A DNA stretch of 64,000 bases from Escherichia coli (GTDB lineage: Bacteria; Pseudomonadota; Gammaproteobacteria; Enterobacterales; Enterobacteriaceae). The position numbers and the translations under genes were made by a program. The notes below the pieces were generated by a model, which was given only the letters and a program-made list of their open reading frames with translations, was not told the origin of the DNA and searched no databases. The stretch is from assembly GCF_024502345.1 (NCBI RefSeq), contig NZ_JALDNN010000001.1; one strand, written 5' to 3'. Shown one piece after another: positions 5,969 through 33,286 of the stretch. Each line of letters begins with the position of its first letter. The stretch's first letter is position 1.

Positions 5969-6055
5969 GCGAAGGTGGCGGAATTGGTAGACGCGCTAGC
6001 TTCAGGTGTTAGTGTCCTTACGGACGTGGGGGTTCAAGTCCCCCCCCTCGCACCA
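5969..6055 (+). tRNA. leuQ: tRNA-Leu (anticodon CAG)
   Basis: 87-nt sequence gcgaaggtggcggaattggtagacgcg...tcgcacca with CAG anticodon loop and long variable arm; first of three tandem copies. Confidence 0.9.
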
Positions 6056-6083
6056 AAAACCACGTTGATATTGCTCGCACTGG

Positions 6084-6170
6084 GCGAAGGTGGCGGAATT
6101 GGTAGACGCGCTAGCTTCAGGTGTTAGTGTTCTTACGGACGTGGGGGTTCAAGTCCCCCCCCTCGCACCA
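6084..6170 (+). tRNA. leuP: tRNA-Leu (anticodon CAG)
   Basis: Second tandem copy; differs from copies 1 and 3 by one base (tgttctt vs tgtcctt) in the variable region. Confidence 0.9.
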
Positions 6171-6204
6171 AACGAGGCGATATCAAAAAAAGTAAGATGA
6201 CTGT

Positions 6205-6291
6205 GCGAAGGTGGCGGAATTGGTAGACGCGCTAGCTTCAGGTGTTAGTGTCCTTACGGACGTGGGGGTTCAAGTCCCCCCCCTCGCACCA
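6205..6291 (+). tRNA. leuV: tRNA-Leu (anticodon CAG)
   Basis: Third tandem copy, identical to copy 1. Confidence 0.9.
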
Positions 6292-6706: not shown

Positions 6707-7495
6707 ATGGCCTATCGTTCCGCACCGCTCTATGAAGATGTCATCTGGCGAACACATCTCCAGCCGCAGGATGCTGGGCTTGCACAAGCCGTACGGGCGA
6801 TGATCGCCAAACATCGTGAACATTTGCTCGAGTTTATCCGCCTGGATGAACCCGCTCCGCTTAACGCCATGACGCTGGCGCAATGGTCATCACCGAATGC
6901 GCTAAGTTCTCTACTGGCGGTCTATTCCGATCATATCTATCGCAACCAACCAACGATGATCCGCGAGAACAAACCGCTGATCTCACTATGGGCACAATGG
7001 TATATCGGCCTGATGGTGCCACCATTAATGCTGGCGCTACTGACGCAGGAAAAGGCATTAGATGTGTCGCCGGAACATTTCCATGCTGAGTTTCACGAAA
7101 CCGGACGCGTCGCCTGTTTCTGGGTCGATGTGTGTGAAGATAAAAACGCAACACCACATTCGCCGCAGCATCGAATGGAAACGTTAATCAGCCAGGCGCT
7201 GGTTCCGGTTGTGCAAGCACTAGAAGCGACCGGAGAGATCAACGGCAAACTTATCTGGAGTAATACCGGTTATTTGATCAACTGGTATCTCACTGAGATG
7301 AAGCAACTGCTCGGCGAGGCTACTGTTGAATCGCTGCGTCATGCCCTCTTTTTTGAGAAAACGCTCACGAACGGTGAAGATAATCCACTCTGGCGTACCG
7401 TGGTGCTACGCGACGGCCTGCTGGTGCGCCGCACTTGCTGCCAGCGTTATCGCTTACCGGATGTGCAGCAATGTGGCGATTGTACGCTGAAATGA
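6707..7495 (+). CDS. fhuF: Ferric-siderophore reductase FhuF
   Basis: 262-aa ORF ending in the 2Fe-2S Cys cluster CCQRYRLPDVQQCGDC. Confidence 0.9.
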   Translation: MAYRSAPLYEDVIWRTHLQPQDAGLAQAVRAMIAKHREHLLEFIRLDEPAPLNAMTLAQWSSPNALSSLLAVYSDHIYRNQPTMIRENKPLISLWAQWYIGLMVPPLMLALLTQEKALDVSPEHFHAEFHETGRVACFWVDVCEDKNATPHSPQHRMETLISQALVPVVQALEATGEINGKLIWSNTGYLINWYLTEMKQLLGEATVESLRHALFFEKTLTNGEDNPLWRTVVLRDGLLVRRTCCQRYRLPDVQQCGDCTLK

Positions 7496-7532
7496 AAGCA
7501 CTGCCGGGGAAGTAAACCCGGCATCATGCGGA

Positions 7533-20234: not shown

Positions 20235-20282
20235 ACTCCCTATGCCCGATAACATTTTGCTTATCGGGCATTTTTATGGCGA

Positions 20283-21947
20283 TTAAAACGTTTCCCAGTT
20301 CTCCCCGCTATCTGCCACTGCCATTTTACGCGGCGTAGCTGGCGTCACGGTTTTTACCACAGCCGATGTTTCACGCTGCTGTTGCTGCTGTTGCTGAATC
20401 CGGAACACTGCCACAGCTTCGGTCAGGCGACTGGCCTGCTCTTCCAGCGCGGCGGCGGCAGCGGCAGACTCTTCCACCAGCGCGGCGTTCTGTTGAGTTA
20501 CCCGGTCCATCTCAGCAACCGCTAAGCCAACCTGATCGATACCACGGCTCTGCTCATCAGAAGCAGAAGCTATTTCGCCCATAATGTCCGTCACGCGGGT
20601 CACGGCGCTGACAATCTCCGCCATTGTTTCCCCGGCGCTTTCGACCAGCGTAGAGCCAACATCCACTTTCCCCACCGAGTCTTCAATCAGGCTTTTAATT
20701 TCACGAGCCGCCTGGGCGCTACGCTGGGCCAGATTACGCACTTCTCCCGCAACCACCGCAAAACCACGTCCTTGCTCACCCGCACGCGCAGCCTCAACCG
20801 CCGCGTTCAAAGCCAGAATATTGGTCTGGAAGGCAATGCCGTCAATTACGCTGATAATATCGGCGATTTTCTGCGAACTAGTGGAGATATCGCGCATAGT
20901 CTGCACCACGTTATCCACCACTTTGCCGCCGCGTTGCGCCGTTTCAGAAGCACTTAACGCCAGGTGGCTGGCCTGGCGCGCATTCTCGGCGTTCTGTTTC
21001 ACCGTTGCGGTCAGTTGCTCCATGCTGGCTGCCGTCTCTTCCAGCGAAGCGGCCTGTTGCTCGGTGCGCGAAGAGAGATCGTTATTACCGGTAGCGATTT
21101 CGCTGGCACCGCTATAGATGGCATTGGCCCCGTTGCGCACATCACCGACGGTACGCATCAGTTCTCCCTGCATATGGCGCAAACTCTCTGCCAGTTGCCC
21201 CATCTCATTAGAGCCATCCACCTCAATCGGTTTCACCAGATCGCCGCCTGCAATATGACGGATGCTGTCAATCAGGCGATTCATTGGCGCTACCAGCGAG
21301 GCTTTAATACCGAACCAGACGGCGAAGATGACCGCCAGTACGACGATCATCACGCCCACCAGAATCCACATCGCCTGGCTGTAGGAGGCATTGTTATCGC
21401 TGACGGCGATATCATAGAGCCGATCGTTTTGCTCCATGTAAGCCACATACTGCTTCTCGAAACCGTCTTGATATCCCTGGGTCGGCTGATCAAAGAACTC
21501 GTTGATTTTGCCTGCACCTAACAGTTGGATCAGCTCCGCCAGCGCATTGTGATAAATATCGTAATTACGTTTGCTCTCTGCCGCTGCGGCGGTGCTCTGA
21601 CGCGGGTCACGCGGCAACGCTTCGTAATCCACCCAGTTTTTTTCCGCCTGTTTCAACGAAATACTGGCACTCTGCATCAGCTCAGCAACGGTTGAACCGC
21701 TACCAATATTATTCTGATCCATCATGTAGCGGATACCCGCGCGGTTGAGGGTGTTACGCGTCTGCAACAACGCGACCCAGCTGCCATTCAGCGTGGATTG
21801 CTGCTGGCGAATGGTTTGTAAAACAGTGAAATTTTCTTTGTCATTCTTTAAGGCATTAAAGAACAGACCGCCTGATGTCAGTTGTAAAAGGCCAAAAACG
21901 GCCAAAACCAGCAGTAAGCTGGTCACGATCTTGATACGTTTTAACAT
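20283..21947 (-). CDS. tsr: Methyl-accepting chemotaxis protein I (serine chemoreceptor)
   Basis: 554-aa ORF with two TM segments, HAMP, methylation helices and C-terminal NWETF pentapeptide; the linker carries seven consecutive Gln codons. Confidence 0.9.
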
Positions 21948-22065: not shown

Positions 22066-22512
22066 TTATTCATTATCGCCCGGGATGTCTTCTTGTCGGG
22101 AATTGCCCAGAGCAATAAATTCCTCTAACAGATGGGTTAACTGTTGCATTTTCTCGGCAGTAAACTGAGCTTCAATCTGCCGATAGGCTTCTTCAATCTG
22201 TGTCTGAGCGCGGTTATACAGCGCCTGCCCCTCTTTGGTCAGCGAGATATAGAGCTTCCGCTGATCATTGATCGGCTTTAATCGCAACACTAAACCGTCG
22301 CGTTCCATCCGCGTGAGGATCCCGGTCAGGCTTGGGCGCAAAATGCAGGCGCGATACGCCAGATCGTGAAAATCCATTGATGGGCTTTCCGCCAGAATAC
22401 GCACGATGCGCCACTGTTGCTCAGTCAAATTATGCCGTTTAACGATTGGGCGAAAATAACTCATCGCCGCTTCTCGCGCCTGGAGCAACGCAATGGTTAG
22501 TGAGTCGTGCAT
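22066..22512 (-). CDS. hpaR: MarR-family repressor of the hpa operon
   Basis: 148 aa from the internal Met (MHDSLTIALLQAREAAMSYF...), divergent from hpaG. Confidence 0.8.
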   Translation of the reverse strand: MHDSLTIALLQAREAAMSYFRPIVKRHNLTEQQWRIVRILAESPSMDFHDLAYRACILRPSLTGILTRMERDGLVLRLKPINDQRKLYISLTKEGQALYNRAQTQIEEAYRQIEAQFTAEKMQQLTHLLEEFIALGNSRQEDIPGDNE

Positions 22513-22783
22513 TATCTTTCCCCTGAAAAATTCAAAATCATTAATATAGAAACAATTAATCATCACGTTACCGGGACTGCGCTGCCCCTGCAATTCCTGA
22601 TTTTATCAAAATTGATGATATTTTATTAACTTACTGATATTTAATATTTTATTATCTTTATATGTAAATAGTTTGTTAATTAGATCACATTTATATCACT
22701 TACTTTTGCCAAACTACGCAATCGGGAATAAAAGTAATCATTAACATATTAATGATTAAGATGATCGAATCCGAGGAGTGGTA

Positions 22784-24073
22784 ATGAAAGGCACTATCTT
22801 CGCCGTAGCGTTGAACCATCGCAGCCAACTTGATGCCTGGCAGGAAGCGTTCCAGCAATCTCCCTACAAAGCCCCGCCTAAAACTGCGGTCTGGTTTATT
22901 AAACCGCGCAATACGGTGATTGGTTGCGGTGAACCGATTCCCTTTCCACAGGGTGAAAAGGTACTGAGCGGTGCGACAGTTGCGCTGATTGTGGGAAAAA
23001 CGGCGACGAAAGTACGTGAAGAAGATGCGGCAGAGTACATCGCCGGATATGCGCTGGCTAACGACGTCAGCCTGCCGGAAGAGAGCTTTTACCGCCCGGC
23101 AATCAAAGCAAAATGTCGTGATGGATTCTGCCCCATTGGCGAAACCGTGGCTCTCAGCAATGTCGATAATCTGACTATCTATACCGAGATCAACGGGCGT
23201 CCTGCCGATCACTGGAATACCGCCGATTTACAACGTAACGCCGCACAGCTGCTGAGCGCCCTGAGCGAATTCGCCACGCTGAACCCAGGCGACGCCATTT
23301 TGCTTGGCACACCACAAACCCGCGTGGACATTCAACCCGGCGATCGCGTTCGTGTTCTCGCAGAAGGTTTCCCGCCGCTGGAAAATCCGGTAGTGGACGA
23401 ACGTGAAGTGACCACGCGTAAAACCTTCCCAACGCAGCCACACCCGCACGGCACGCTGTTTGCCCTCGGCCTGAACTACGCCGACCACGCCAGTGAACTG
23501 GAATTTAAGCCACCGGAAGAGCCGTTGGTGTTTCTGAAAGCGCCGAATACCCTCACGGGCGATAACCAGACCTCCGTGCGCCCGAACAACATCGAGTACA
23601 TGCACTACGAAGCGGAGCTGGTGGTAGTTATTGGCAAGCAGGCTCGTAACGTCAGCGAAGCCGATGCCATGGATTATGTCGCGGGCTACACCGTGTGTAA
23701 CGACTACGCCATTCGCGACTATCTGGAAAACTACTACCGCCCTAACCTGCGGGTCAAAAGCCGCGACGGACTGACGCCGATGCTTTCAACCATCGTGCCG
23801 AAAGAGGCGATCCCGGACCCGCATAATCTGACCCTTCGCACCTTCGTCAACGGCGAGTTACGCCAGCAAGGCACCACCGCCGATCTGATCTTCAGCGTGC
23901 CCTTCCTGATCGCCTACTTAAGCGAATTTATGACCCTGAATCCGGGCGACATGATCGCCACCGGCACACCAAAAGGCTTATCTGACGTGGTGCCTGGCGA
24001 TGAAGTAGTGGTGGAAGTAGAAGGCGTGGGCCGCCTGGTGAACCGAATTGTGAGTGAGGAAACAGCGAAATGA
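22784..24073 (+). CDS. hpaG: Bifunctional isomerase/decarboxylase of the homoprotocatechuate pathway (FAH family, duplicated domain)
   Basis: 429 aa from ATG at 22784 (GGAG 5 nt upstream); two FAH-like halves. Confidence 0.85.
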   Translation: MKGTIFAVALNHRSQLDAWQEAFQQSPYKAPPKTAVWFIKPRNTVIGCGEPIPFPQGEKVLSGATVALIVGKTATKVREEDAAEYIAGYALANDVSLPEESFYRPAIKAKCRDGFCPIGETVALSNVDNLTIYTEINGRPADHWNTADLQRNAAQLLSALSEFATLNPGDAILLGTPQTRVDIQPGDRVRVLAEGFPPLENPVVDEREVTTRKTFPTQPHPHGTLFALGLNYADHASELEFKPPEEPLVFLKAPNTLTGDNQTSVRPNNIEYMHYEAELVVVIGKQARNVSEADAMDYVAGYTVCNDYAIRDYLENYYRPNLRVKSRDGLTPMLSTIVPKEAIPDPHNLTLRTFVNGELRQQGTTADLIFSVPFLIAYLSEFMTLNPGDMIATGTPKGLSDVVPGDEVVVEVEGVGRLVNRIVSEETAK

Positions 24074-25536
24074 AAAAAGTAAATCATTGGATCAACGGCA
24101 AAAATGTTGCAGGTAACGACTACTTCCAGACCACCAATCCGGCAACCGGTGAAGTGCTGGCGGATGTGGCCTCTGGCGGTGAAGCGGAGATCAATCAGGC
24201 GGTAGCGGCAGCGAAAGAGGCGTTCCCGAAATGGGCCAATCTGCCGATGAAAGAGCGTGCGCGCCTGATGCGCCGTCTGGGCGATCTGATCGACCAGAAC
24301 GTGCCTGAGATCGCCGCGATGGAAACCGCGGACACGGGCCTGCCGATCCATCAGACCAAAAACATGTTGATCCCACGCGCTTCTCACAACTTTGAATTTT
24401 TCGCGGAAGTCTGCCAGCAGATGAACGGCAAGACCTATCCGGTTGACGACAAGATGCTCAACTACACGCTGGTGCAGCCGGTAGGCGTTTGTGCACTGGT
24501 GTCGCCGTGGAACGTGCCGTTTATGACCGCCACATGGAAGGTCGCGCCGTGTCTTGCGCTGGGCAATACCGCGGTGCTGAAGATGTCGGAACTCTCCCCG
24601 CTGACCGCTGACCGCCTGGGTGAGCTGGCGCTGGAAGCCGGTATTCCGGCGGGCGTGCTGAACGTGGTACAGGGCTACGGCGCAACCGCAGGGGATGCGC
24701 TGGTTCGTCATCATGACGTACGTGCCGTGTCGTTCACCGGCGGTACGGCCACCGGGCGCAACATCATGAAAAACGCCGGGCTGAAAAAATACTCCATGGA
24801 ACTGGGCGGTAAATCGCCGGTGCTGATTTTTGAAGATGCCGATATTGAACGCGCGCTGGACGCTGCCCTGTTCACCATCTTCTCAATCAACGGCGAACGC
24901 TGCACCGCCGGTTCGCGCATTTTTATTCAACAGAGCATCTATCCAGAATTCGTTAAACGCTTTGCCGAACGCGCCAACCGTCTGCGCGTGGGCGATCCGA
25001 CCGATCCGAATACCCAGGTTGGGGCGCTTATCAGCCAGCAGCACTGGGAAAAAGTCTCCGGCTATATCCGTCTCGGCATTGAAGAAGGCGCCACCCTGCT
25101 GGCGGGCGGCCCGGATAAACCGTCTGACCTGCCTGCACACCTGAAAGGCGGCAACTTCCTGCGCCCAACGGTGCTGGCGGACGTAGATAACCGTATGCGC
25201 GTTGCCCAGGAAGAGATTTTCGGGCCGGTCGCCTGCCTGCTGCCGTTTAAAGATGAAGCCGAAGGCTTACGCCTGGCAAACGACGTGGAGTACGGCCTCG
25301 CGTCGTACATCTGGACGCAGGATGTCAGCAAAGTGTTACGCCTGGCGCGTGGCATTGAAGCAGGCATGGTGTTCGTCAACACCCAGAACGTGCGTGACCT
25401 GCGCCAGCCATTTGGCGGCGTAAAAGCCTCCGGCACCGGGCGTGAAGGCGGTGAGTACAGCTTCGAAGTGTTCGCGGAAATGAAGAACGTCTGCATTTCC
25501 ATGGGCGACCATCCAATTCCGAAATGGGGAGTCTGA
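24070..25536 (+). CDS. hpaE: 5-carboxymethyl-2-hydroxymuconate semialdehyde dehydrogenase
   Basis: 488-aa aldehyde dehydrogenase ORF (catalytic Cys in FSINGERCTAGSR, ELGGKSP motif); ATGA overlap with hpaG. Confidence 0.85.
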   Translation: MKKVNHWINGKNVAGNDYFQTTNPATGEVLADVASGGEAEINQAVAAAKEAFPKWANLPMKERARLMRRLGDLIDQNVPEIAAMETADTGLPIHQTKNMLIPRASHNFEFFAEVCQQMNGKTYPVDDKMLNYTLVQPVGVCALVSPWNVPFMTATWKVAPCLALGNTAVLKMSELSPLTADRLGELALEAGIPAGVLNVVQGYGATAGDALVRHHDVRAVSFTGGTATGRNIMKNAGLKKYSMELGGKSPVLIFEDADIERALDAALFTIFSINGERCTAGSRIFIQQSIYPEFVKRFAERANRLRVGDPTDPNTQVGALISQQHWEKVSGYIRLGIEEGATLLAGGPDKPSDLPAHLKGGNFLRPTVLADVDNRMRVAQEEIFGPVACLLPFKDEAEGLRLANDVEYGLASYIWTQDVSKVLRLARGIEAGMVFVNTQNVRDLRQPFGGVKASGTGREGGEYSFEVFAEMKNVCISMGDHPIPKWGV

Positions 25537-25537
25537 T

Positions 25538-26389
25538 ATGGGTAAGTTAGCGTTAGCCGCCAAGATCACGCACGTACCGTCGATGTATCTCTCTGAACTG
25601 CCAGGGAAAAACCACGGTTGCCGCCAGGGCGCGATCGACGGGCATAAAGAGATCAGCAAGCGTTGCCGGGAAATGGGCGTCGATACCATTATCGTTTTCG
25701 ACACCCACTGGCTGGTCAACAGTGCTTATCACATCAACTGTGCAGACCATTTTGAAGGCGTCTACACCAGTAACGAACTGCCGCATTTTATTCGTGACAT
25801 GACCTACAACTACGAGGGCAACCCGGAGTTGGGGCAGCTTATTGCCGATGAAGCCTTAAAGCTCGGCGTGCGGGCGAAAGCGCACAACATTCCCAGCCTC
25901 AAACTGGAGTACGGCACGCTGGTACCGATGCGCTACATGAATGAAGACAAGCGCTTCAAAGTGGTCTCCATTTCGGCTTTCTGCACGGTTCACGATTTTG
26001 CCGACAGCCGCAAGCTGGGCGAAGCGATTCTGAAAGCGATCGAACAGTACGACGGCACCGTGGCGGTCCTTGCCAGCGGTTCGTTATCGCACCGCTTTAT
26101 TGACGATCAGCGTGCAGAAGAAGGGATGAACAGCTACACCCGCGAGTTCGACCGTCAGATGGACGAGCGCGTGGTGAAGTTGTGGCGCGAAGGCCAGTTC
26201 AAAGAGTTCTGCAATATGCTGCCGGAGTACGCCGACTACTGCTACGGCGAAGGCAATATGCACGACACGGTGATGCTGCTGGGGATGCTCGGCTGGGATA
26301 AATACGACGGCAAGGTGGAGTTTATCACCGAGCTATTCCCAAGCTCTGGCACCGGTCAGGTTAACGCTGTTTTCCCGCTTCCCGCGTAA
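25538..26389 (+). CDS. hpaD: 3,4-dihydroxyphenylacetate 2,3-dioxygenase
   Basis: 283-aa extradiol-dioxygenase-like ORF in the conserved hpa position. Confidence 0.85.
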   Translation: MGKLALAAKITHVPSMYLSELPGKNHGCRQGAIDGHKEISKRCREMGVDTIIVFDTHWLVNSAYHINCADHFEGVYTSNELPHFIRDMTYNYEGNPELGQLIADEALKLGVRAKAHNIPSLKLEYGTLVPMRYMNEDKRFKVVSISAFCTVHDFADSRKLGEAILKAIEQYDGTVAVLASGSLSHRFIDDQRAEEGMNSYTREFDRQMDERVVKLWREGQFKEFCNMLPEYADYCYGEGNMHDTVMLLGMLGWDKYDGKVEFITELFPSSGTGQVNAVFPLPA

Positions 26390-26398
26390 GGACGTTTT

Positions 26399-26779
26399 AT
26401 GCCGCACTTTATCGTTGAATGCAGTGACAACATCCGCGAAGAAGCCGACCTGCCGGGGTTGTTCGCCAAAGTGAATCCGACGCTGGCAGCCACGGGTATT
26501 TTTCCGCTGGCGGGTATTCGCAGCCGCGTGCATTGGGTCGATACCTGGCAGATGGCCGACGGGCAGCGTGATTATGCCTTCGTGCATATGACGTTGAAAA
26601 TCGGCGCAGGTCGCAGCCTGGAAAGCCGTCAGCAGGCGGGTGAAATGCTGTTTGAACTGATTAAAACGCACTTCGCCGCCCTGATGGAGAGCCGCCTGCT
26701 GGCGTTGTCGTTTGAGATTGAAGAGCTGCATCCGACGCTGAATTTTAAACAAAACAACGTGCACGCATTGTTTAAGTAG
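26399..26779 (+). CDS. hpaF: 5-carboxymethyl-2-hydroxymuconate isomerase
   Basis: 126-aa ORF starting [12 protein letters not shown]. Confidence 0.85.
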
Positions 26780-26790
26780 CGCGCAGATTG

Positions 26791-26880
26791 CCCGGTGGCG
26801 CTGCGCTTACCGGGCCTACAAAACCCCAAACCGTACACCGTAGGCCGGATAAGGCGCAGCCGCATCCGGCAATGCCACAG
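26791..26880. repeat. REP element(s) between hpaF and hpaH
   Basis: gcctacaaaa...gtaggccggataaggcg...gcatccggca REP consensus-like palindromes. Confidence 0.6.
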
Positions 26881-26889
26881 GATATCGCT

Positions 26890-27693
26890 ATGTTCGATAA
26901 ACATACCCACACCCTGATCGCCCAGCGTCTGGATCAGGCAGAAAAACAGCGCGAACAGATCCGCGCGATCTCACTGGATTACCCGGAGATCACCATCGAA
27001 GACGCTTACGCGGTGCAGCGCGAATGGGTTCGCCTGAAAATCGCCGAAGGTCGCACGCTGAAAGGCCACAAAATCGGCCTGACCTCGAAAGCGATGCAGG
27101 CAAGCTCGCAGATCAGCGAACCGGATTACGGCGCGCTGCTGGATGACATGTTCTTCCACGATGGCAGCGATATCCCGACCGATCGCTTTATCGTGCCGCG
27201 CATTGAAGTGGAGCTGGCTTTCGTGCTGGCAAAACCGCTGCGTGGGCCAAACTGCACGCTGTTCGACGTCTACAACGCCACGGACTACGTGATCCCGGCG
27301 CTGGAGCTGATCGACGCTCGCTGCCACAACATCGATCCGGAAACCCAGCGCCCGCGCAAAGTGTTCGACACCATTTCTGATAACGCCGCCAACGCCGGGG
27401 TGATCCTCGGTGGTCGTCAGATCAAACCAGACGAACTGGATCTGCGTTGGATCTCCGCCCTGATGTATCGCAATGGCGTGATTGAAGAAACCGGCGTCGC
27501 CGCTGGCGTGCTGAATCATCCGGCAAACGGCGTGGCCTGGCTGGCGAACAAACTCGCACCGTATGACGTACAACTGGAAGCCGGGCAAATCATTCTCGGT
27601 GGTTCGTTCACCCGCCCGGTTCCGGCGCGTAAGGGCGACACCTTCCACGTCGATTACGGCAACATGGGTTCCATTAGCTGCCGCTTTGTTTAA
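26890..27693 (+). CDS. hpaH: 2-oxo-hept-4-ene-1,7-dioate hydratase
   Basis: 267 aa from the internal Met [12 protein letters not shown]...; the upstream part of the track ORF runs through the REP. Confidence 0.8.
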
Positions 27694-27703
27694 GGAGAGA
27701 ACG

Positions 27704-28492
27704 ATGGAAAACAGCTTTAAAGCGGCGCTGAAAGCAGGCCGTCCGCAGATCGGATTATGGCTGGGGCTGAGTAGCAGCTACAGCGCAGAGTTACTGGCCG
27801 GAGCAGGATTCGACTGGTTGTTGATCGACGGTGAGCACGCGCCGAATAACGTGCAAACCGTGCTCACCCAGCTACAGGCGATTGCGCCCTACCCCAGCCA
27901 GCCGGTAGTACGTCCGTCGTGGAACGATCCGGTGCAAATCAAACAACTGCTGGACGTCGGCACACAAACCTTGCTGGTGCCGATGGTACAAAACGCTGAC
28001 GAAGCCCGTGAAGCGGTACGCGCCACCCGTTATCCCCCCGCCGGTATTCGCGGTGTGGGCAGTGCGCTGGCCCGCGCCTCGCGCTGGAATCGTATTCCTG
28101 ATTACCTGCAAAAAGCCAACGATCAAATGTGCGTGCTGGTGCAGATCGAAACGCGTGAGGCAATGAAGAACTTACCGCAGATTCTGGACGTGGAAGGAGT
28201 CGACGGCGTGTTTATCGGCCCGGCGGATCTGAGCGCCGATATGGGTTATGCCGGTAATCCGCAGCACCCGGAAGTACAGGCCGCCATTGAGCAGGCGATC
28301 GTGCAGATCCGCGAAGCGGGCAAAGCGCCGGGGATCCTGATCGCCAATGAGCAACTGGCAAAACGCTATCTGGAACTGGGCGCGCTGTTTGTCGCCGTCG
28401 GCGTTGACACCACCCTGCTCGCCCGCGCCGCCGAAGCGCTGGCAGCACGGTTTGGCGCGCAGGCTACAGCGATTAAGCCCGGCGTGTATTAA
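27704..28492 (+). CDS. hpaI: 2,4-dihydroxyhept-2-ene-1,7-dioate aldolase
   Basis: 262 aa from [19 protein letters not shown]... (HpcH/HpaI aldolase family). Confidence 0.85.
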
Positions 28493-28499
28493 TGTCGAA

Positions 28500-28625
28500 T
28501 GCGTTGCGCTTATCCGGCCTACACGCGCACCAAATCGTAGGCCTGATAAGGCGTTACGCCGCATCCGGCAAAAAGCCGTACCAAATCGCGGACCGGATAA
28601 GGCGTTTACGCCGCATCCGCCATAA
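28500..28625. repeat. Tandem REP elements between hpaI and hpaX
   Basis: Repeated cttatccggcctac / ggataaggcgtt(t)acgccgcatccg units. Confidence 0.6.
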
Positions 28626-28666
28626 ACCTTGTCGTACCCTACAAAAATCCCATTAGAGGAAGAAAA

Positions 28667-30043
28667 ATGAGCGACACCTCACCTGCCATACCGGAGAGTA
28701 TCGATCCGGCGAATCAGCATAAAGCGCTGACTGCCGGACAACAGGCGGTTATTAAGAAGCTATTTCGCCGCCTGATCGTCTTTCTGTTCGTGCTGTTTAT
28801 CTTCTCGTTCCTTGATCGCATCAACATTGGTTTTGCCGGACTAACTATGGGACGCGACCTCGGTCTGAGCGCCACCATGTTTGGCCTCGCTACCACCCTG
28901 TTCTACGCCGCTTATGTCATCTTCGGCATTCCCAGCAACATTATGCTGAGTATTGTCGGTGCGCGGCGCTGGATCGCCACCATCATGGTGCTTTGGGGCA
29001 TCGCCTCTACTGCCACCATGTTTGCCACTGGCCCCACCAGCTTATACATACTGCGTATACTGGTTGGCATTACCGAAGCCGGCTTTCTGCCTGGCATTCT
29101 GCTCTATTTAACCTTCTGGTTTCCGGCCTATTTCCGCGCCCGTGCCAACGCCTTGTTTATGGTGGCAATGCCGGTAACGACAGCGTTGGGATCGATCGTT
29201 TCCGGCTACATTTTGTCGCTGGATGGCGTAATGGCATTAAAAGGCTGGCAGTGGCTGTTTTTGCTGGAAGGCTTCCCGTCGGTATTACTCGGCGTCATGG
29301 TATGGTTCTGGCTTGATGACTCACCGGACAAAGCTAACTGGCTGACGAAAGAAGACAAAAAATGCCTGCAAGAGATGATGGATAATGATCGTCTGACGCT
29401 GGTTCAGCCAGAGGGAGCCATCAGCCACCACGCTATGCAACAACGCAGCATGTGGCGGGAGATCTTCACTCCGGTGGTGATGATGTATACCCTGGCGTAT
29501 TTCTGCCTGACCAACACACTTAGTGCGATCAGCATCTGGACACCGCAGATCCTGCAAAGCTTCAATCAGGGCAGCAGTAATATCACCATCGGTCTGCTGG
29601 CCGCCGTACCGCAGATTTGTACCATTCTCGGGATGGTCTACTGGAGCCGTCACTCAGATCGCTGCCAGGAACGAAGGCATCACACCGCCCTTCCTTATTT
29701 GTTCGCTGCCGCTGGTTGGTTACTGGCTTCGGCAACTGATCACAACATGATCCAGATGCTGGGGATCATTATGGCTTCGACCGGATCATTCAGCGCAATG
29801 GCGATTTTCTGGACAACACCGGATCAGTCCATCAGCCTGCGGGCACGAGCGATCGGTATTGCGGTGATCAACGCCACTGGCAACATTGGTTCAGCATTAA
29901 GTCCGTTTATGATCGGCTGGTTGAAAGATCTGACCGGCAGCTTTAACAGTGGATTGTGGTTTGTTGCCGCGCTGCTGGTGATTGGTGCAGGGATTATCTG
30001 GGCAATTCCAATGCAGTCCTCCCGTCCGCGAGCGACCCCGTAA
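28667..30043 (+). CDS. hpaX: 4-hydroxyphenylacetate permease (MFS)
   Basis: 458-aa 12-TM ORF in the hpa cluster. Confidence 0.8.
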   Translation: MSDTSPAIPESIDPANQHKALTAGQQAVIKKLFRRLIVFLFVLFIFSFLDRINIGFAGLTMGRDLGLSATMFGLATTLFYAAYVIFGIPSNIMLSIVGARRWIATIMVLWGIASTATMFATGPTSLYILRILVGITEAGFLPGILLYLTFWFPAYFRARANALFMVAMPVTTALGSIVSGYILSLDGVMALKGWQWLFLLEGFPSVLLGVMVWFWLDDSPDKANWLTKEDKKCLQEMMDNDRLTLVQPEGAISHHAMQQRSMWREIFTPVVMMYTLAYFCLTNTLSAISIWTPQILQSFNQGSSNITIGLLAAVPQICTILGMVYWSRHSDRCQERRHHTALPYLFAAAGWLLASATDHNMIQMLGIIMASTGSFSAMAIFWTTPDQSISLRARAIGIAVINATGNIGSALSPFMIGWLKDLTGSFNSGLWFVAALLVIGAGIIWAIPMQSSRPRATP

Positions 30044-30052
30044 GGAACGACG

Positions 30053-30943
30053 ATGTGTGACCGTCAGATTGCCAATATTGATATCAGCAAAGAGTACGAT
30101 GAAAGCCTGGGCACGGACGATGTGCATTATCAGTCGTTCGCCCGCATGGCGGCATTTTTTGGCCGCCATATGCTGCCACATCGCCACGAACAGTACTTTC
30201 AGATGCATTTCCTCAATAGCGGACAGATTGAGCTACAGCTTGACGATCATCGCTACTCGGTGGAAGCGCCCCTGTTTGTCCTGACGCCGCCGTCAGTACC
30301 TCATGCGTTTATTACGGAGTCTGACGCCGACGGTCATGTGTTGACGGTACGGGAAGATCTGATCTGGCCCCTGCTGGAAGTTCTTTATCCAGGCACTCGG
30401 GAAACCTTCGGCCTGCCGGGGATTTGCCTGTCACTGGCAGATAAACCCGACGAACTGGCGGCGCTGGAACACTATTGGCAACTGATAGAGCGGGAATCGG
30501 TGGAACAACTGCCTGGACGGGAACACACCCTGACGTTACTGGCACAGGCAGTGTTCACCCTACTGCTGCGTAACGCAAAACTCGACGATCATGCCACCAG
30601 CGGAATGCGCGGAGAATTAAAACTGTTCCAGCGTTTTAATATGCTGATTGAAAGCCATTTTCATCAGCACTGGACAGTACCGGATTACGCTAACGAACTG
30701 CATATCACCGAATCACGCCTCACGGACATCTGCCGCCGCTTTGCCAACCGTCCGCCAAAACGGTTGATTTTCGACAGGCAGCTGCGAGAAGCCAAACGGC
30801 TGCTGCTGTTTTCTGATAACGCCGTGAACAATATTGCCTGGCAACTCGGTTTTAAGGATCCGGCTTATTTTGCGCGCTTTTTTAATCGCTTAGTCGGTTG
30901 CTCGCCCAGTGCTTATCGTGCCAAAAAAGTACCTGTGACGTGA
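30053..30943 (+). CDS. hpaA: AraC/XylS-family activator of hpaBC
   Basis: 296-aa ORF with C-terminal AraC-type HTH (IAWQLGFKDPAYFARFF). Confidence 0.8.
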   Translation: MCDRQIANIDISKEYDESLGTDDVHYQSFARMAAFFGRHMLPHRHEQYFQMHFLNSGQIELQLDDHRYSVEAPLFVLTPPSVPHAFITESDADGHVLTVREDLIWPLLEVLYPGTRETFGLPGICLSLADKPDELAALEHYWQLIERESVEQLPGREHTLTLLAQAVFTLLLRNAKLDDHATSGMRGELKLFQRFNMLIESHFHQHWTVPDYANELHITESRLTDICRRFANRPPKRLIFDRQLREAKRLLLFSDNAVNNIAWQLGFKDPAYFARFFNRLVGCSPSAYRAKKVPVT

Positions 30944-31193
30944 AAATCCCTTAGCCTTAACGGGAAACCAGGCACCACCTGCTATTCCCCTTTCTCCGCC
31001 TGGAGCAAGGGGATTTAGTAACGTTAAAAATAGCTAAAAGCGACCTCGATCACAAAACCGTACCCGACCTGAAAAGTACCAGCCATTGTCCCAAAAGTCT
31101 CTTCCCGTAATCGCCCCTGCAAGCTTCAATTGAATAACAAAAACAACACACAAAATTAACAATCGTATTCCGATTAATACTGTAGAGGTCGAC

Positions 31194-32756
31194 ATGAAAC
31201 CAGAAGATTTCCGCGCCAGTACCCAACGTCCGTTCACCGGGGAAGAGTATCTGAAAAGCCTGCAGGATGGTCGCGAGATCTATATCTATGGCGAGCGAGT
31301 GAAAGACGTCACCACTCATCCGGCATTTCGTAATGCGGCAGCGTCTGTTGCCCAACTGTACGACGCGCTACACAAACCGGAGATGCAGGACTCTCTGTGC
31401 TGGAACACCGACACCGGTAGCGGCGGCTATACCCATAAATTCTTCCGCGTGGCGAAAAGTGCCGACGACCTGCGCCAGCAACGCGACGCCATCGCTGAGT
31501 GGTCACGCCTGAGCTATGGCTGGATGGGCCGCACCCCAGACTACAAAGCCGCTTTCGGTTGCGCACTGGGCGCGAATCCGGGCTTTTACGGTCAGTTCGA
31601 GCAGAACGCCCGTAACTGGTATACCCGTATTCAGGAAACTGGCCTCTACTTTAACCACGCGATTGTTAACCCACCGATCGATCGTCATTTGCCGACCGAT
31701 AAAGTAAAAGACGTTTACATCAAGCTGGAAAAAGAGACTGACGCCGGGATTATCGTCAGCGGTGCGAAAGTGGTTGCCACCAACTCGGCGCTGACTCACT
31801 ACAACATGATTGGCTTCGGCTCGGCACAAGTAATGGGCGAAAACCCGGACTTCGCACTGATGTTCGTTGCGCCAATGGATGCCGATGGCGTGAAATTAAT
31901 CTCCCGCGCCTCTTATGAGATGGTCGCGGGTGCTACCGGCTCGCCGTACGACTACCCGCTCTCCAGCCGCTTCGATGAGAACGATGCAATCCTGGTGATG
32001 GATAACGTACTGATCCCGTGGGAAAACGTGCTGATCTACCGCGATTTTGATCGCTGCCGTCGCTGGACAATGGAAGGCGGTTTTGCCCGTATGTATCCGC
32101 TGCAAGCCTGTGTGCGCCTGGCAGTGAAACTCGACTTCATTACGGCACTGCTGAAAAAATCACTCGAATGTACCGGCACCCTGGAGTTCCGTGGTGTGCA
32201 GGCCGATCTCGGTGAAGTGGTGGCGTGGCGCAACACCTTCTGGGCATTGAGTGACTCGATGTGTTCAGAAGCAACGCCGTGGGTCAACGGGGCTTATTTA
32301 CCGGATCATGCCGCACTGCAAACCTATCGCGTACTGGCACCAATGGCCTACGCGAAGATCAAAAACATTATCGAACGCAACGTTACCAGTGGCCTGATCT
32401 ATCTCCCTTCCAGTGCCCGTGACCTGAACAATCCGCAGATCGACCAGTATCTGGCGAAGTATGTGCGCGGTTCGAACGGTATGGATCACGTCCAGCGCAT
32501 CAAGATCCTCAAACTGATGTGGGATGCCATTGGCAGCGAATTTGGTGGTCGTCACGAACTGTATGAAATCAACTACTCCGGTAGCCAGGATGAGATTCGC
32601 CTGCAATGTCTGCGCCAGGCACAAAGCTCCGGCAATATGGACAAGATGATGGCGATGGTTGATCGCTGCCTGTCGGAATACGACCAGAACGGCTGGACTG
32701 TGCCGCACCTGCACAACAACGACGATATCAACATGCTGGATAAGCTGCTGAAATAA
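31194..32756 (+). CDS. hpaB: 4-hydroxyphenylacetate 3-monooxygenase, oxygenase component
   Basis: 520-aa ORF in the conserved hpaBC position. Confidence 0.85.
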   Translation: MKPEDFRASTQRPFTGEEYLKSLQDGREIYIYGERVKDVTTHPAFRNAAASVAQLYDALHKPEMQDSLCWNTDTGSGGYTHKFFRVAKSADDLRQQRDAIAEWSRLSYGWMGRTPDYKAAFGCALGANPGFYGQFEQNARNWYTRIQETGLYFNHAIVNPPIDRHLPTDKVKDVYIKLEKETDAGIIVSGAKVVATNSALTHYNMIGFGSAQVMGENPDFALMFVAPMDADGVKLISRASYEMVAGATGSPYDYPLSSRFDENDAILVMDNVLIPWENVLIYRDFDRCRRWTMEGGFARMYPLQACVRLAVKLDFITALLKKSLECTGTLEFRGVQADLGEVVAWRNTFWALSDSMCSEATPWVNGAYLPDHAALQTYRVLAPMAYAKIKNIIERNVTSGLIYLPSSARDLNNPQIDQYLAKYVRGSNGMDHVQRIKILKLMWDAIGSEFGGRHELYEINYSGSQDEIRLQCLRQAQSSGNMDKMMAMVDRCLSEYDQNGWTVPHLHNNDDINMLDKLLK

Positions 32757-32773
32757 CGCAGCAGGAGGTTAAG

Positions 32774-33286
32774 ATGCAATTAGATGAACAACGCCTGCGC
32801 TTTCGTGACGCGATGGCCAGCCTGTCGGCAGCGGTAAATATTATCACCACCGAGGGCGACGCCGGACAATGCGGGATTACGGCAACGGCCGTCTGCTCGG
32901 TCACGGATACACCACCGTCGCTGATGGTGTGCATTAACGCCAACAGTGCGATGAACCCGGTTTTTCAGGGCAACGGCAAGTTGTGCGTCAACGTCCTCAA
33001 CCATGAGCAGGAGCTGATGGCACGCCACTTCGCGGGCATGACAGGCATGGCGATGGAAGAGCGTTTTAGCCTCTCATGCTGGCAAAAAGGTCCGCTGGCG
33101 CAGCCGGCGCTGAAAGGTTCGCTTGCCAGTCTTGAAGGTGAGATCCGCGATGTGCAGGCAATTGGCACACATCTGGTGTATCTGGTGGAGATTAAAAACA
33201 TCATCCTCAGTGCAGAAGGTCACGGACTTATTTACTTTAAACGCCGTTTCCATCCGGTGATGCTGGAAATGGAAGCTGCGATTTAA
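32774..33286 (+). CDS. hpaC: 4-hydroxyphenylacetate 3-monooxygenase, flavin reductase component
   Basis: 170-aa flavin-reductase-like ORF immediately after hpaB. Confidence 0.85.
   Translation: MQLDEQRLRFRDAMASLSAAVNIITTEGDAGQCGITATAVCSVTDTPPSLMVCINANSAMNPVFQGNGKLCVNVLNHEQELMARHFAGMTGMAMEERFSLSCWQKGPLAQPALKGSLASLEGEIRDVQAIGTHLVYLVEIKNIILSAEGHGLIYFKRRFHPVMLEMEAAI

Follow-up and report, generated by a model that had tools for sequence, protein, structure and literature searches.

The serine chemoreceptor Tsr of Escherichia coli carries a run of glutamines close to its C-terminus, which is seven residues long in the genome described here and four residues long in strain K-12. This locus raises the question of what kind of sequence change underlies such a difference, which of the two lengths is the usual one in the species, and whether three residues in this part of the receptor are likely to matter for chemotactic adaptation. 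The window referred to below is the whole stretch of DNA that was analysed, 64,000 nucleotides of E. coli contig NZ_JALDNN010000001.1 (assembly GCF_024502345.1).

The Receptor Gene and Its Surroundings

The reading frame of tsr, encoding the serine chemoreceptor or methyl-accepting chemotaxis protein I, occupies positions 20283..21947 on the minus strand of the window and specifies 554 amino acids followed by a stop codon. Pfam domains were found in the order of a TarH four-helix ligand-binding domain (residues 1-176, E 1.3e-53), a HAMP domain (217-263), and an MCP signalling domain (MCPsignal, 327-484, E 2.4e-62), and the translation ends in GENWETF. Over the full length 545 of the 554 residues (98%) are identical to K-12 Tsr (b4355, NP_418775.1), and the gene order lgoR-lgoT-tsr is common to the window, K-12, and E. 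coli C, so that both near-identity and conserved chromosomal position identify the gene as the ortholog of K-12 tsr. The original prediction had set 554 amino acids against 551 amino acids and four glutamines in K-12, and this was borne out by the MG1655 sequence (NC_000913.3, b4355), which reads IQQQQRETS at this position; the reference thus lacks the seven glutamines by which the prediction would have been contradicted. The substitutions relative to K-12 are E92Q, A106V, I125S, and H178Y in the periplasmic domain, and alanine to threonine at 538 and glutamate to glycine at 548 (window numbering) in the tether. The gene is annotated as tsr in 5,385 genomes, and the exact protein of the window is present in RefSeq as WP_256632843.1 from E. 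coli, seen on two contigs. At the DNA level complete E. coli genomes match the window to at most 99.6% in tsr and 98.7% across 20 kb, which leaves the genome of the window without a close representative in that collection.

The gap of 48 bp between the convergent genes lgoT and tsr contains a hairpin with a T run (20242..20271, plus strand; 11 pairs, tail TTTTATGG), which, judged by consensus match only, is probably a terminator shared by the two genes. The strains LF82, Z1323HEC0355, SC455, BEN2908, and 3-72 have a gene for a TRAP transporter large permease convergent with tsr and not lgoT, so the chromosome just downstream of tsr differs between lineages. Between tsr and btsT the window holds the 4-hydroxyphenylacetate (hpa) catabolic cluster (22066-33286), as does E. 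coli C, and in K-12 MG1655 tsr adjoins btsT with no hpa genes between them. Within the cluster an imperfect 51-bp tandem array separates hpaI and hpaX (28512-28628, 2.3 copies, 78% match), which looks like REP-type intergenic repeats. Farther away three tandem genes for tRNA-Leu(CAG) (5969-6291, plus strand) were detected by Tandem Repeats Finder as an array with a period of 121 bp. The same genes are located at 7193-7515 in the E. coli C locus, an offset of about 1.2 kb which points to an insertion or deletion between the window and E. coli C somewhere between 6.3 and 12 kb.

Anatomy of the Glutamine Tract

The seven glutamines had been predicted to lie within 20365-20405 and were found there as Q518-Q524, encoded at 20376..20396 on the minus strand. 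Read along the coding strand, the codons are CAG CAA CAG CAG CAA CAG CAG, which is equivalent to (CAGCAACAG)x2 + CAG, with the first unit at 20388-20396, the second at 20379-20387, and the terminal CAG at 20376-20378, all on the minus strand. Tandem Repeats Finder reported the array at 20375-20396 with a period of 9, 2.4 copies, and a 100% match, that is, with at least two perfect head-to-tail copies. When the tract was aligned at the DNA level with that of K-12, the sole difference was one gap of 9 bp, corresponding to three glutamines, and the difference in length is thus in frame, as had been proposed. The proposal that the polymorphism proceeds in trinucleotide steps did not hold. The unit is 9 bp long, or three codons of mixed CAG and CAA, and lengths of 4, 7, 10, and 13 glutamines are the only ones among about 240 listed BLAST rows and 120 proteins, a periodicity by which a trinucleotide (CAG) expansion is ruled out.

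Within the window the tract stands out in two respects. No longer run of a single amino acid occurs in the 75 long reading frames (23,519 residues), and no other perfect tandem array has a unit of at least 8 bases. Four tandem arrays were observed in the window compared to a mean of 0.37 in windows with shuffled triplets. The decisive evidence that the glutamine repeat is not a product of chance is that its copy number differs between genomes in whole units.

A second array, a hexanucleotide of the GCGGCA type (20448-20465, minus strand; period 6, 3.2 copies in Tandem Repeats Finder), encodes the six alanines A495-A500 of Tsr. It is located 52 bases from the glutamine tract, about 17 codons upstream, and we take it to lie between the methylation sites E493 and E502 (K-12 numbering). 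One database Tsr (P0123, 556 amino acids) has eight alanines at this array, and two residues inserted at this point of the methylation helix would probably upset its heptad register.

Length Alleles in Escherichia coli

The alleles which were encountered all follow the formula (CAGCAACAG)n + CAG with n from 1 to 4, giving 3n+1, that is, 4, 7, 10, or 13 glutamines. One unit (4 glutamines) is found in K-12, REL606, and BEN2908. Two units (7 glutamines) are found in the window and YZMc3-1, and also in O157 Sakai, strain 042, E. coli C, ATCC 8739, the ST131 strains EC958 and JJ1886, Nissle 1917, ATCC 25922, and one ST648 strain, a set from O157 Sakai onwards which spans the phylogroups A, B2, D, E, and F. 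Three units (10 glutamines) occur in LF82, SC455, ET350, and 3-72. Four units (13 glutamines) were read from the sequence of Z1323HEC0355, and RM14723 and A13 were assigned to this class because they match the 13-glutamine query at 100% over its full length. In each of the four alleles read from sequence the reading frame is kept and the protein ends in NWETF, so that strains differ by whole units with the frame preserved. Alleles deviating by one or two glutamines (5, 6, 8, or 9) were absent among the approximately 240 BLAST matches listed. A phase-variable contingency locus is ruled out as well, as the repeat unit lies within the coding sequence and has a length divisible by three, and every allele yields a full-length receptor.

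For an estimate of frequencies four allele-specific BLAST queries, with 50 bases of flank on each side, were run against 5,426 complete E. coli genomes. The 7-glutamine query matched 4,056 of 5,382 records with at least 95% identity and without a gap; another 1,251 records, in which one unit is different, fell between 90 and 95%, and 75 between 80 and 90%. With the 4-glutamine query 1,270 records were obtained at 95% or above, a band which includes some 10-glutamine matches split in two pieces, and 3,836 at 90-95%. The 10-glutamine query yielded 49 records with at least 99% identity. Three full ungapped matches were seen with the 13-glutamine query, and the 72 records which it matched at 90-95% bound the 10-glutamine class. 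This gives shares of about 75% for 7 glutamines, about 22-23% for 4 glutamines, and about 1% for 10 glutamines, with 13 glutamines in three genomes; being based on bands of BLAST identity and on rows that were sampled, these shares are approximate to a few per cent and those of the minor classes are ranges, as differences of two or more units often split a match into two BLAST pieces and blur the bands. Seven glutamines are hence the commonest tsr allele of E. coli, and the four of K-12 are a minority.

In a search at the protein level the 120 best matches were all near-identical E. coli proteins, usually 554 amino acids long, with no outgroup among them, and the tract comprised seven residues in all 120, in 12 of these with a point change from glutamine to histidine.

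Polarity and Recurrence

The tract of the window had been called expanded, and the survey of glutamine lengths reverses this polarity, since seven is the modal number and it is K-12 which has the contracted form. For the direction of the change outgroups were sought by scanning one genome per species with a degenerate DNA pattern, which required ...CAR CGN GAR AC and thereby misses variants such as the REAS of BEN2908. Relevant loci were obtained from E. whittamii and Citrobacter sedlakii only; four other matches were due to chance and belonged to unrelated metagenome bins. The tract of E. whittamii (CAG CAG ACG CAA CAG CAG CAA CAG CAG, encoding QQTQQQQQQ) contains two CAACAGCAG units. Citrobacter sedlakii has QQEQQ at the position of the tract, which indicates that a glutamine-rich start of the tail predates E. 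coli. Within E. coli the 7-glutamine allele is spread over many haplotypes, and 1,040 of the approximately 1,270 matches of the 4-glutamine query at 95% or above are at least 99% identical to the K-12 flank. Taken together, the haplotype spread of the 7-glutamine allele, the K-12-like flanks of most 4-glutamine matches, and the two units of E. whittamii suggest that two units are the more ancient condition in E. coli and that K-12 has lost one, a polarity which rests on one close outgroup and the haplotype spread. The share of 75% reached by 7 glutamines could also reflect selection rather than ancestry.

The change has not been confined to a single event. Flanks were compared over 433 nt from which the tract itself had been removed. 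Z1323HEC0355 with 13 glutamines and 3-72 with 10 show no difference in these 433 nt. The flank of ET350 (10 glutamines) differs at 5 positions from that of the window and at 13-15 from those of the 10-glutamine strains of the LF82 type. BEN2908 (4 glutamines) has 6 differences from LF82 and 11 from K-12, and downstream of its tsr gene a TRAP-transporter gene is present where K-12 has lgoT. The 4-glutamine proteins in the database are distributed over four different tail haplotypes. The length of the tract has thus changed recurrently and independently of the surrounding haplotype, and it follows from the flank distances and the tail haplotypes that units were gained and lost several times, or were moved by recombination.

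The Tether and the Expected Size of the Effect

Zhang et al. counted the tether of Tsr from I517 and arrived at 30 residues, compared to 34 in Tar (PMC10561060). With the same starting point the tether of the window extends from I517 to E549 (20301..20399, minus strand) and has 33 residues where K-12 has 30, and the alleles with 4, 7, 10, and 13 glutamines correspond to tethers of 30, 33, 36, and 39 residues. It is followed by the C-terminal pentapeptide NWETF (20286..20300, minus strand), a motif of the xZxxZ type which is NWETF in both Tar and Tsr (PMC7390727). The 33 residues of the window fall within the length of about 30-35 residues described for the pentapeptide linker (PMC7390727, PMC10561060). 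The original prediction had placed the tract between the methylation region and NWETF, in which it was correct, as the tract begins at residue 518 and the deposited Tsr chain of PDB 8c5v ends at residue 516. The construct of 1qu7 spans residues 294-520.

How far three residues might shift the adaptation enzymes can be estimated from Tar. Step responses of receptors with Tar tethers of 22, 29, 34, and 46 residues all fitted a model of tethered motion, and the peak position of CheR shifted by 0.128 +/- 0.048 nm per residue with an intercept of 6.0 nm (PMC10561060). Transferred to Tsr, one repeat unit would displace the CheR maximum by some 0.38 nm, which is about 4%. Scaling as a random coil, with a factor of sqrt(33/30), would increase the root-mean-square reach by 5%. 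The earlier suggestion that the length of the tether could tune the reach of the adaptation enzymes is plausible in kind. It has also been argued that the shorter linker of Tsr as compared to Tar (30 versus 34 residues) matches the geometry of the methylation sites (PMC10561060). As this argument rests on the K-12 allele, it would not hold for most E. coli.

Explanation of the Length Alleles

With good confidence the tract can be regarded as a short in-frame tandem repeat within tsr, present here as its two-unit allele, and the alleles of this repeat are most likely near-neutral. Units would be added or removed when replication slips on the 9-bp direct repeats or when these exchange unequally; changes that recur on unrelated haplotypes agree with what slippage on short direct repeats should produce. 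Since such a change is always in frame, the receptor stays intact and only the length of the tether is altered. The tether bears the NWETF site, which would keep CheR and CheB close to the methylation sites, and, by extrapolation from Tar, three extra residues should shift the place where tethered CheR is most likely to be found by only some 0.4 nm. It is due to the smallness of this shift that the alleles are probably near-neutral, any influence on the kinetics of adaptation being subtle at most.

The alternative which survives best, unlikely as it appears, is that the length of the tether is under selection, with steps of three glutamines setting the reach of tethered CheR and CheB. It is equally improbable that such selection has given lineages their own adaptation kinetics for serine or other signals sensed by Tsr. 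In its favour, the length of the Tar tether measurably shifts the distribution of CheR (PMC10561060), the repeat supplies a ready series of 30, 33, 36, and 39 residues, the copy number has changed repeatedly, and the glutamine-rich start of the tail has been retained in E. whittamii and Citrobacter sedlakii. Weighing against it are the small change predicted per unit as calculated above, the sampled BLAST rows, in which no obvious association of alleles with host or source was seen, and the occurrence of 10 and 13 glutamines on identical flanks, which fits mutational drift. Slightly less probable again is the more far-reaching idea that the 9-bp repeat acts as a natural 'length dial' (30, 33, 36, or 39 residues) by which the speed or precision of Tsr adaptation is retuned from lineage to lineage. 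Were it true, K-12, on which all quantitative models of chemotaxis are based, would have an atypically short setting.

A different consequence would follow if the glutamine run continued the C-terminal methylation helix instead of forming part of a random-coil tether. With every three residues the anchor of the tether would then be displaced by about 0.45 nm in the direction of the HAMP domain and the membrane. Glutamine runs following a helix can propagate helicity. A single-sequence AlphaFold2 prediction shows a helix from residue 434 to 532, which runs through Q518-Q524, with pLDDT values below 50 only from residue 528 onwards, and by this prediction the tract may not behave as a random coil. 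The model is a poor one (mean pLDDT 52.9, pTM 0.31) and carries little weight. The Tsr chain of 8c5v stops ahead of the tract, the tether has been modelled as starting at I517 (PMC10561060), and the EPR work on Tar, to the extent that it is cited in PMC10561060, shows an unstructured linker, all of which makes an extended helix improbable, more so than selection on tether length. An error of sequencing or assembly in a low-complexity stretch can be dismissed with near certainty, as the 21-base tract is found ungapped in about 4,056 independent complete genomes and the exact protein stands in RefSeq from two contigs.

The finding is an ordinary one, a common allele of a well-studied gene with little weight for biology at large. 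The allele and the exact protein are contained in public annotation. A description of variable repeat number or of a glutamine polymorphism in tsr was not found in the literature searched; two Salmonella publications, in which 'TSR' denotes a reagent and PCR targets, were irrelevant. What deserves attention is that nearly all work on chemotaxis uses K-12 Tsr with its minority tether of 30 residues, while about three quarters of E. coli have 33.

Comparison with Known Systems

The closest known counterpart is K-12 Tsr itself, which shares with the window the gene, the neighbours on the lgoT side, the order of domains, and the NWETF end. It differs by having one CAGCAACAG unit less (4 instead of 7 glutamines), a tether of 30 instead of 33 residues, and six substitutions.

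Among repeats with variable copy number, the tract resembles the in-frame coding VNTR loci of bacteria, which likewise consist of short head-to-tail units with a length that is a multiple of three and change their copy number recurrently from strain to strain. Compared to the VNTR loci used for typing it is much less variable, with 1.3 to 4.3 copies and one dominant allele. Eukaryotic CAG or polyglutamine expansions have in common with it a glutamine run made of CAG and CAA codons. In tsr, in contrast, the length changes by 9 bp at a time instead of 3 bp, no more than 13 glutamines were seen, and the alleles give no sign of an open-ended expansion.

The engineered Tar tethers (PMC10561060) are the nearest functional parallel, as there too a chain, presumably unstructured, that links the end of the receptor helix to NWETF was changed in length, and they provide the only quantitative handle on the effect of three residues. 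These were laboratory constructs in which 5 to 12 residues were altered beside the pentapeptide, whereas the tsr alleles are natural, proceed in steps of three residues, and act at the helix-proximal end of the tether in Tsr. The natural series of 4, 7, 10, and 13 glutamines offers a ready and minimally invasive set of tethers on which models of tethered enzymes can be examined in Tsr.
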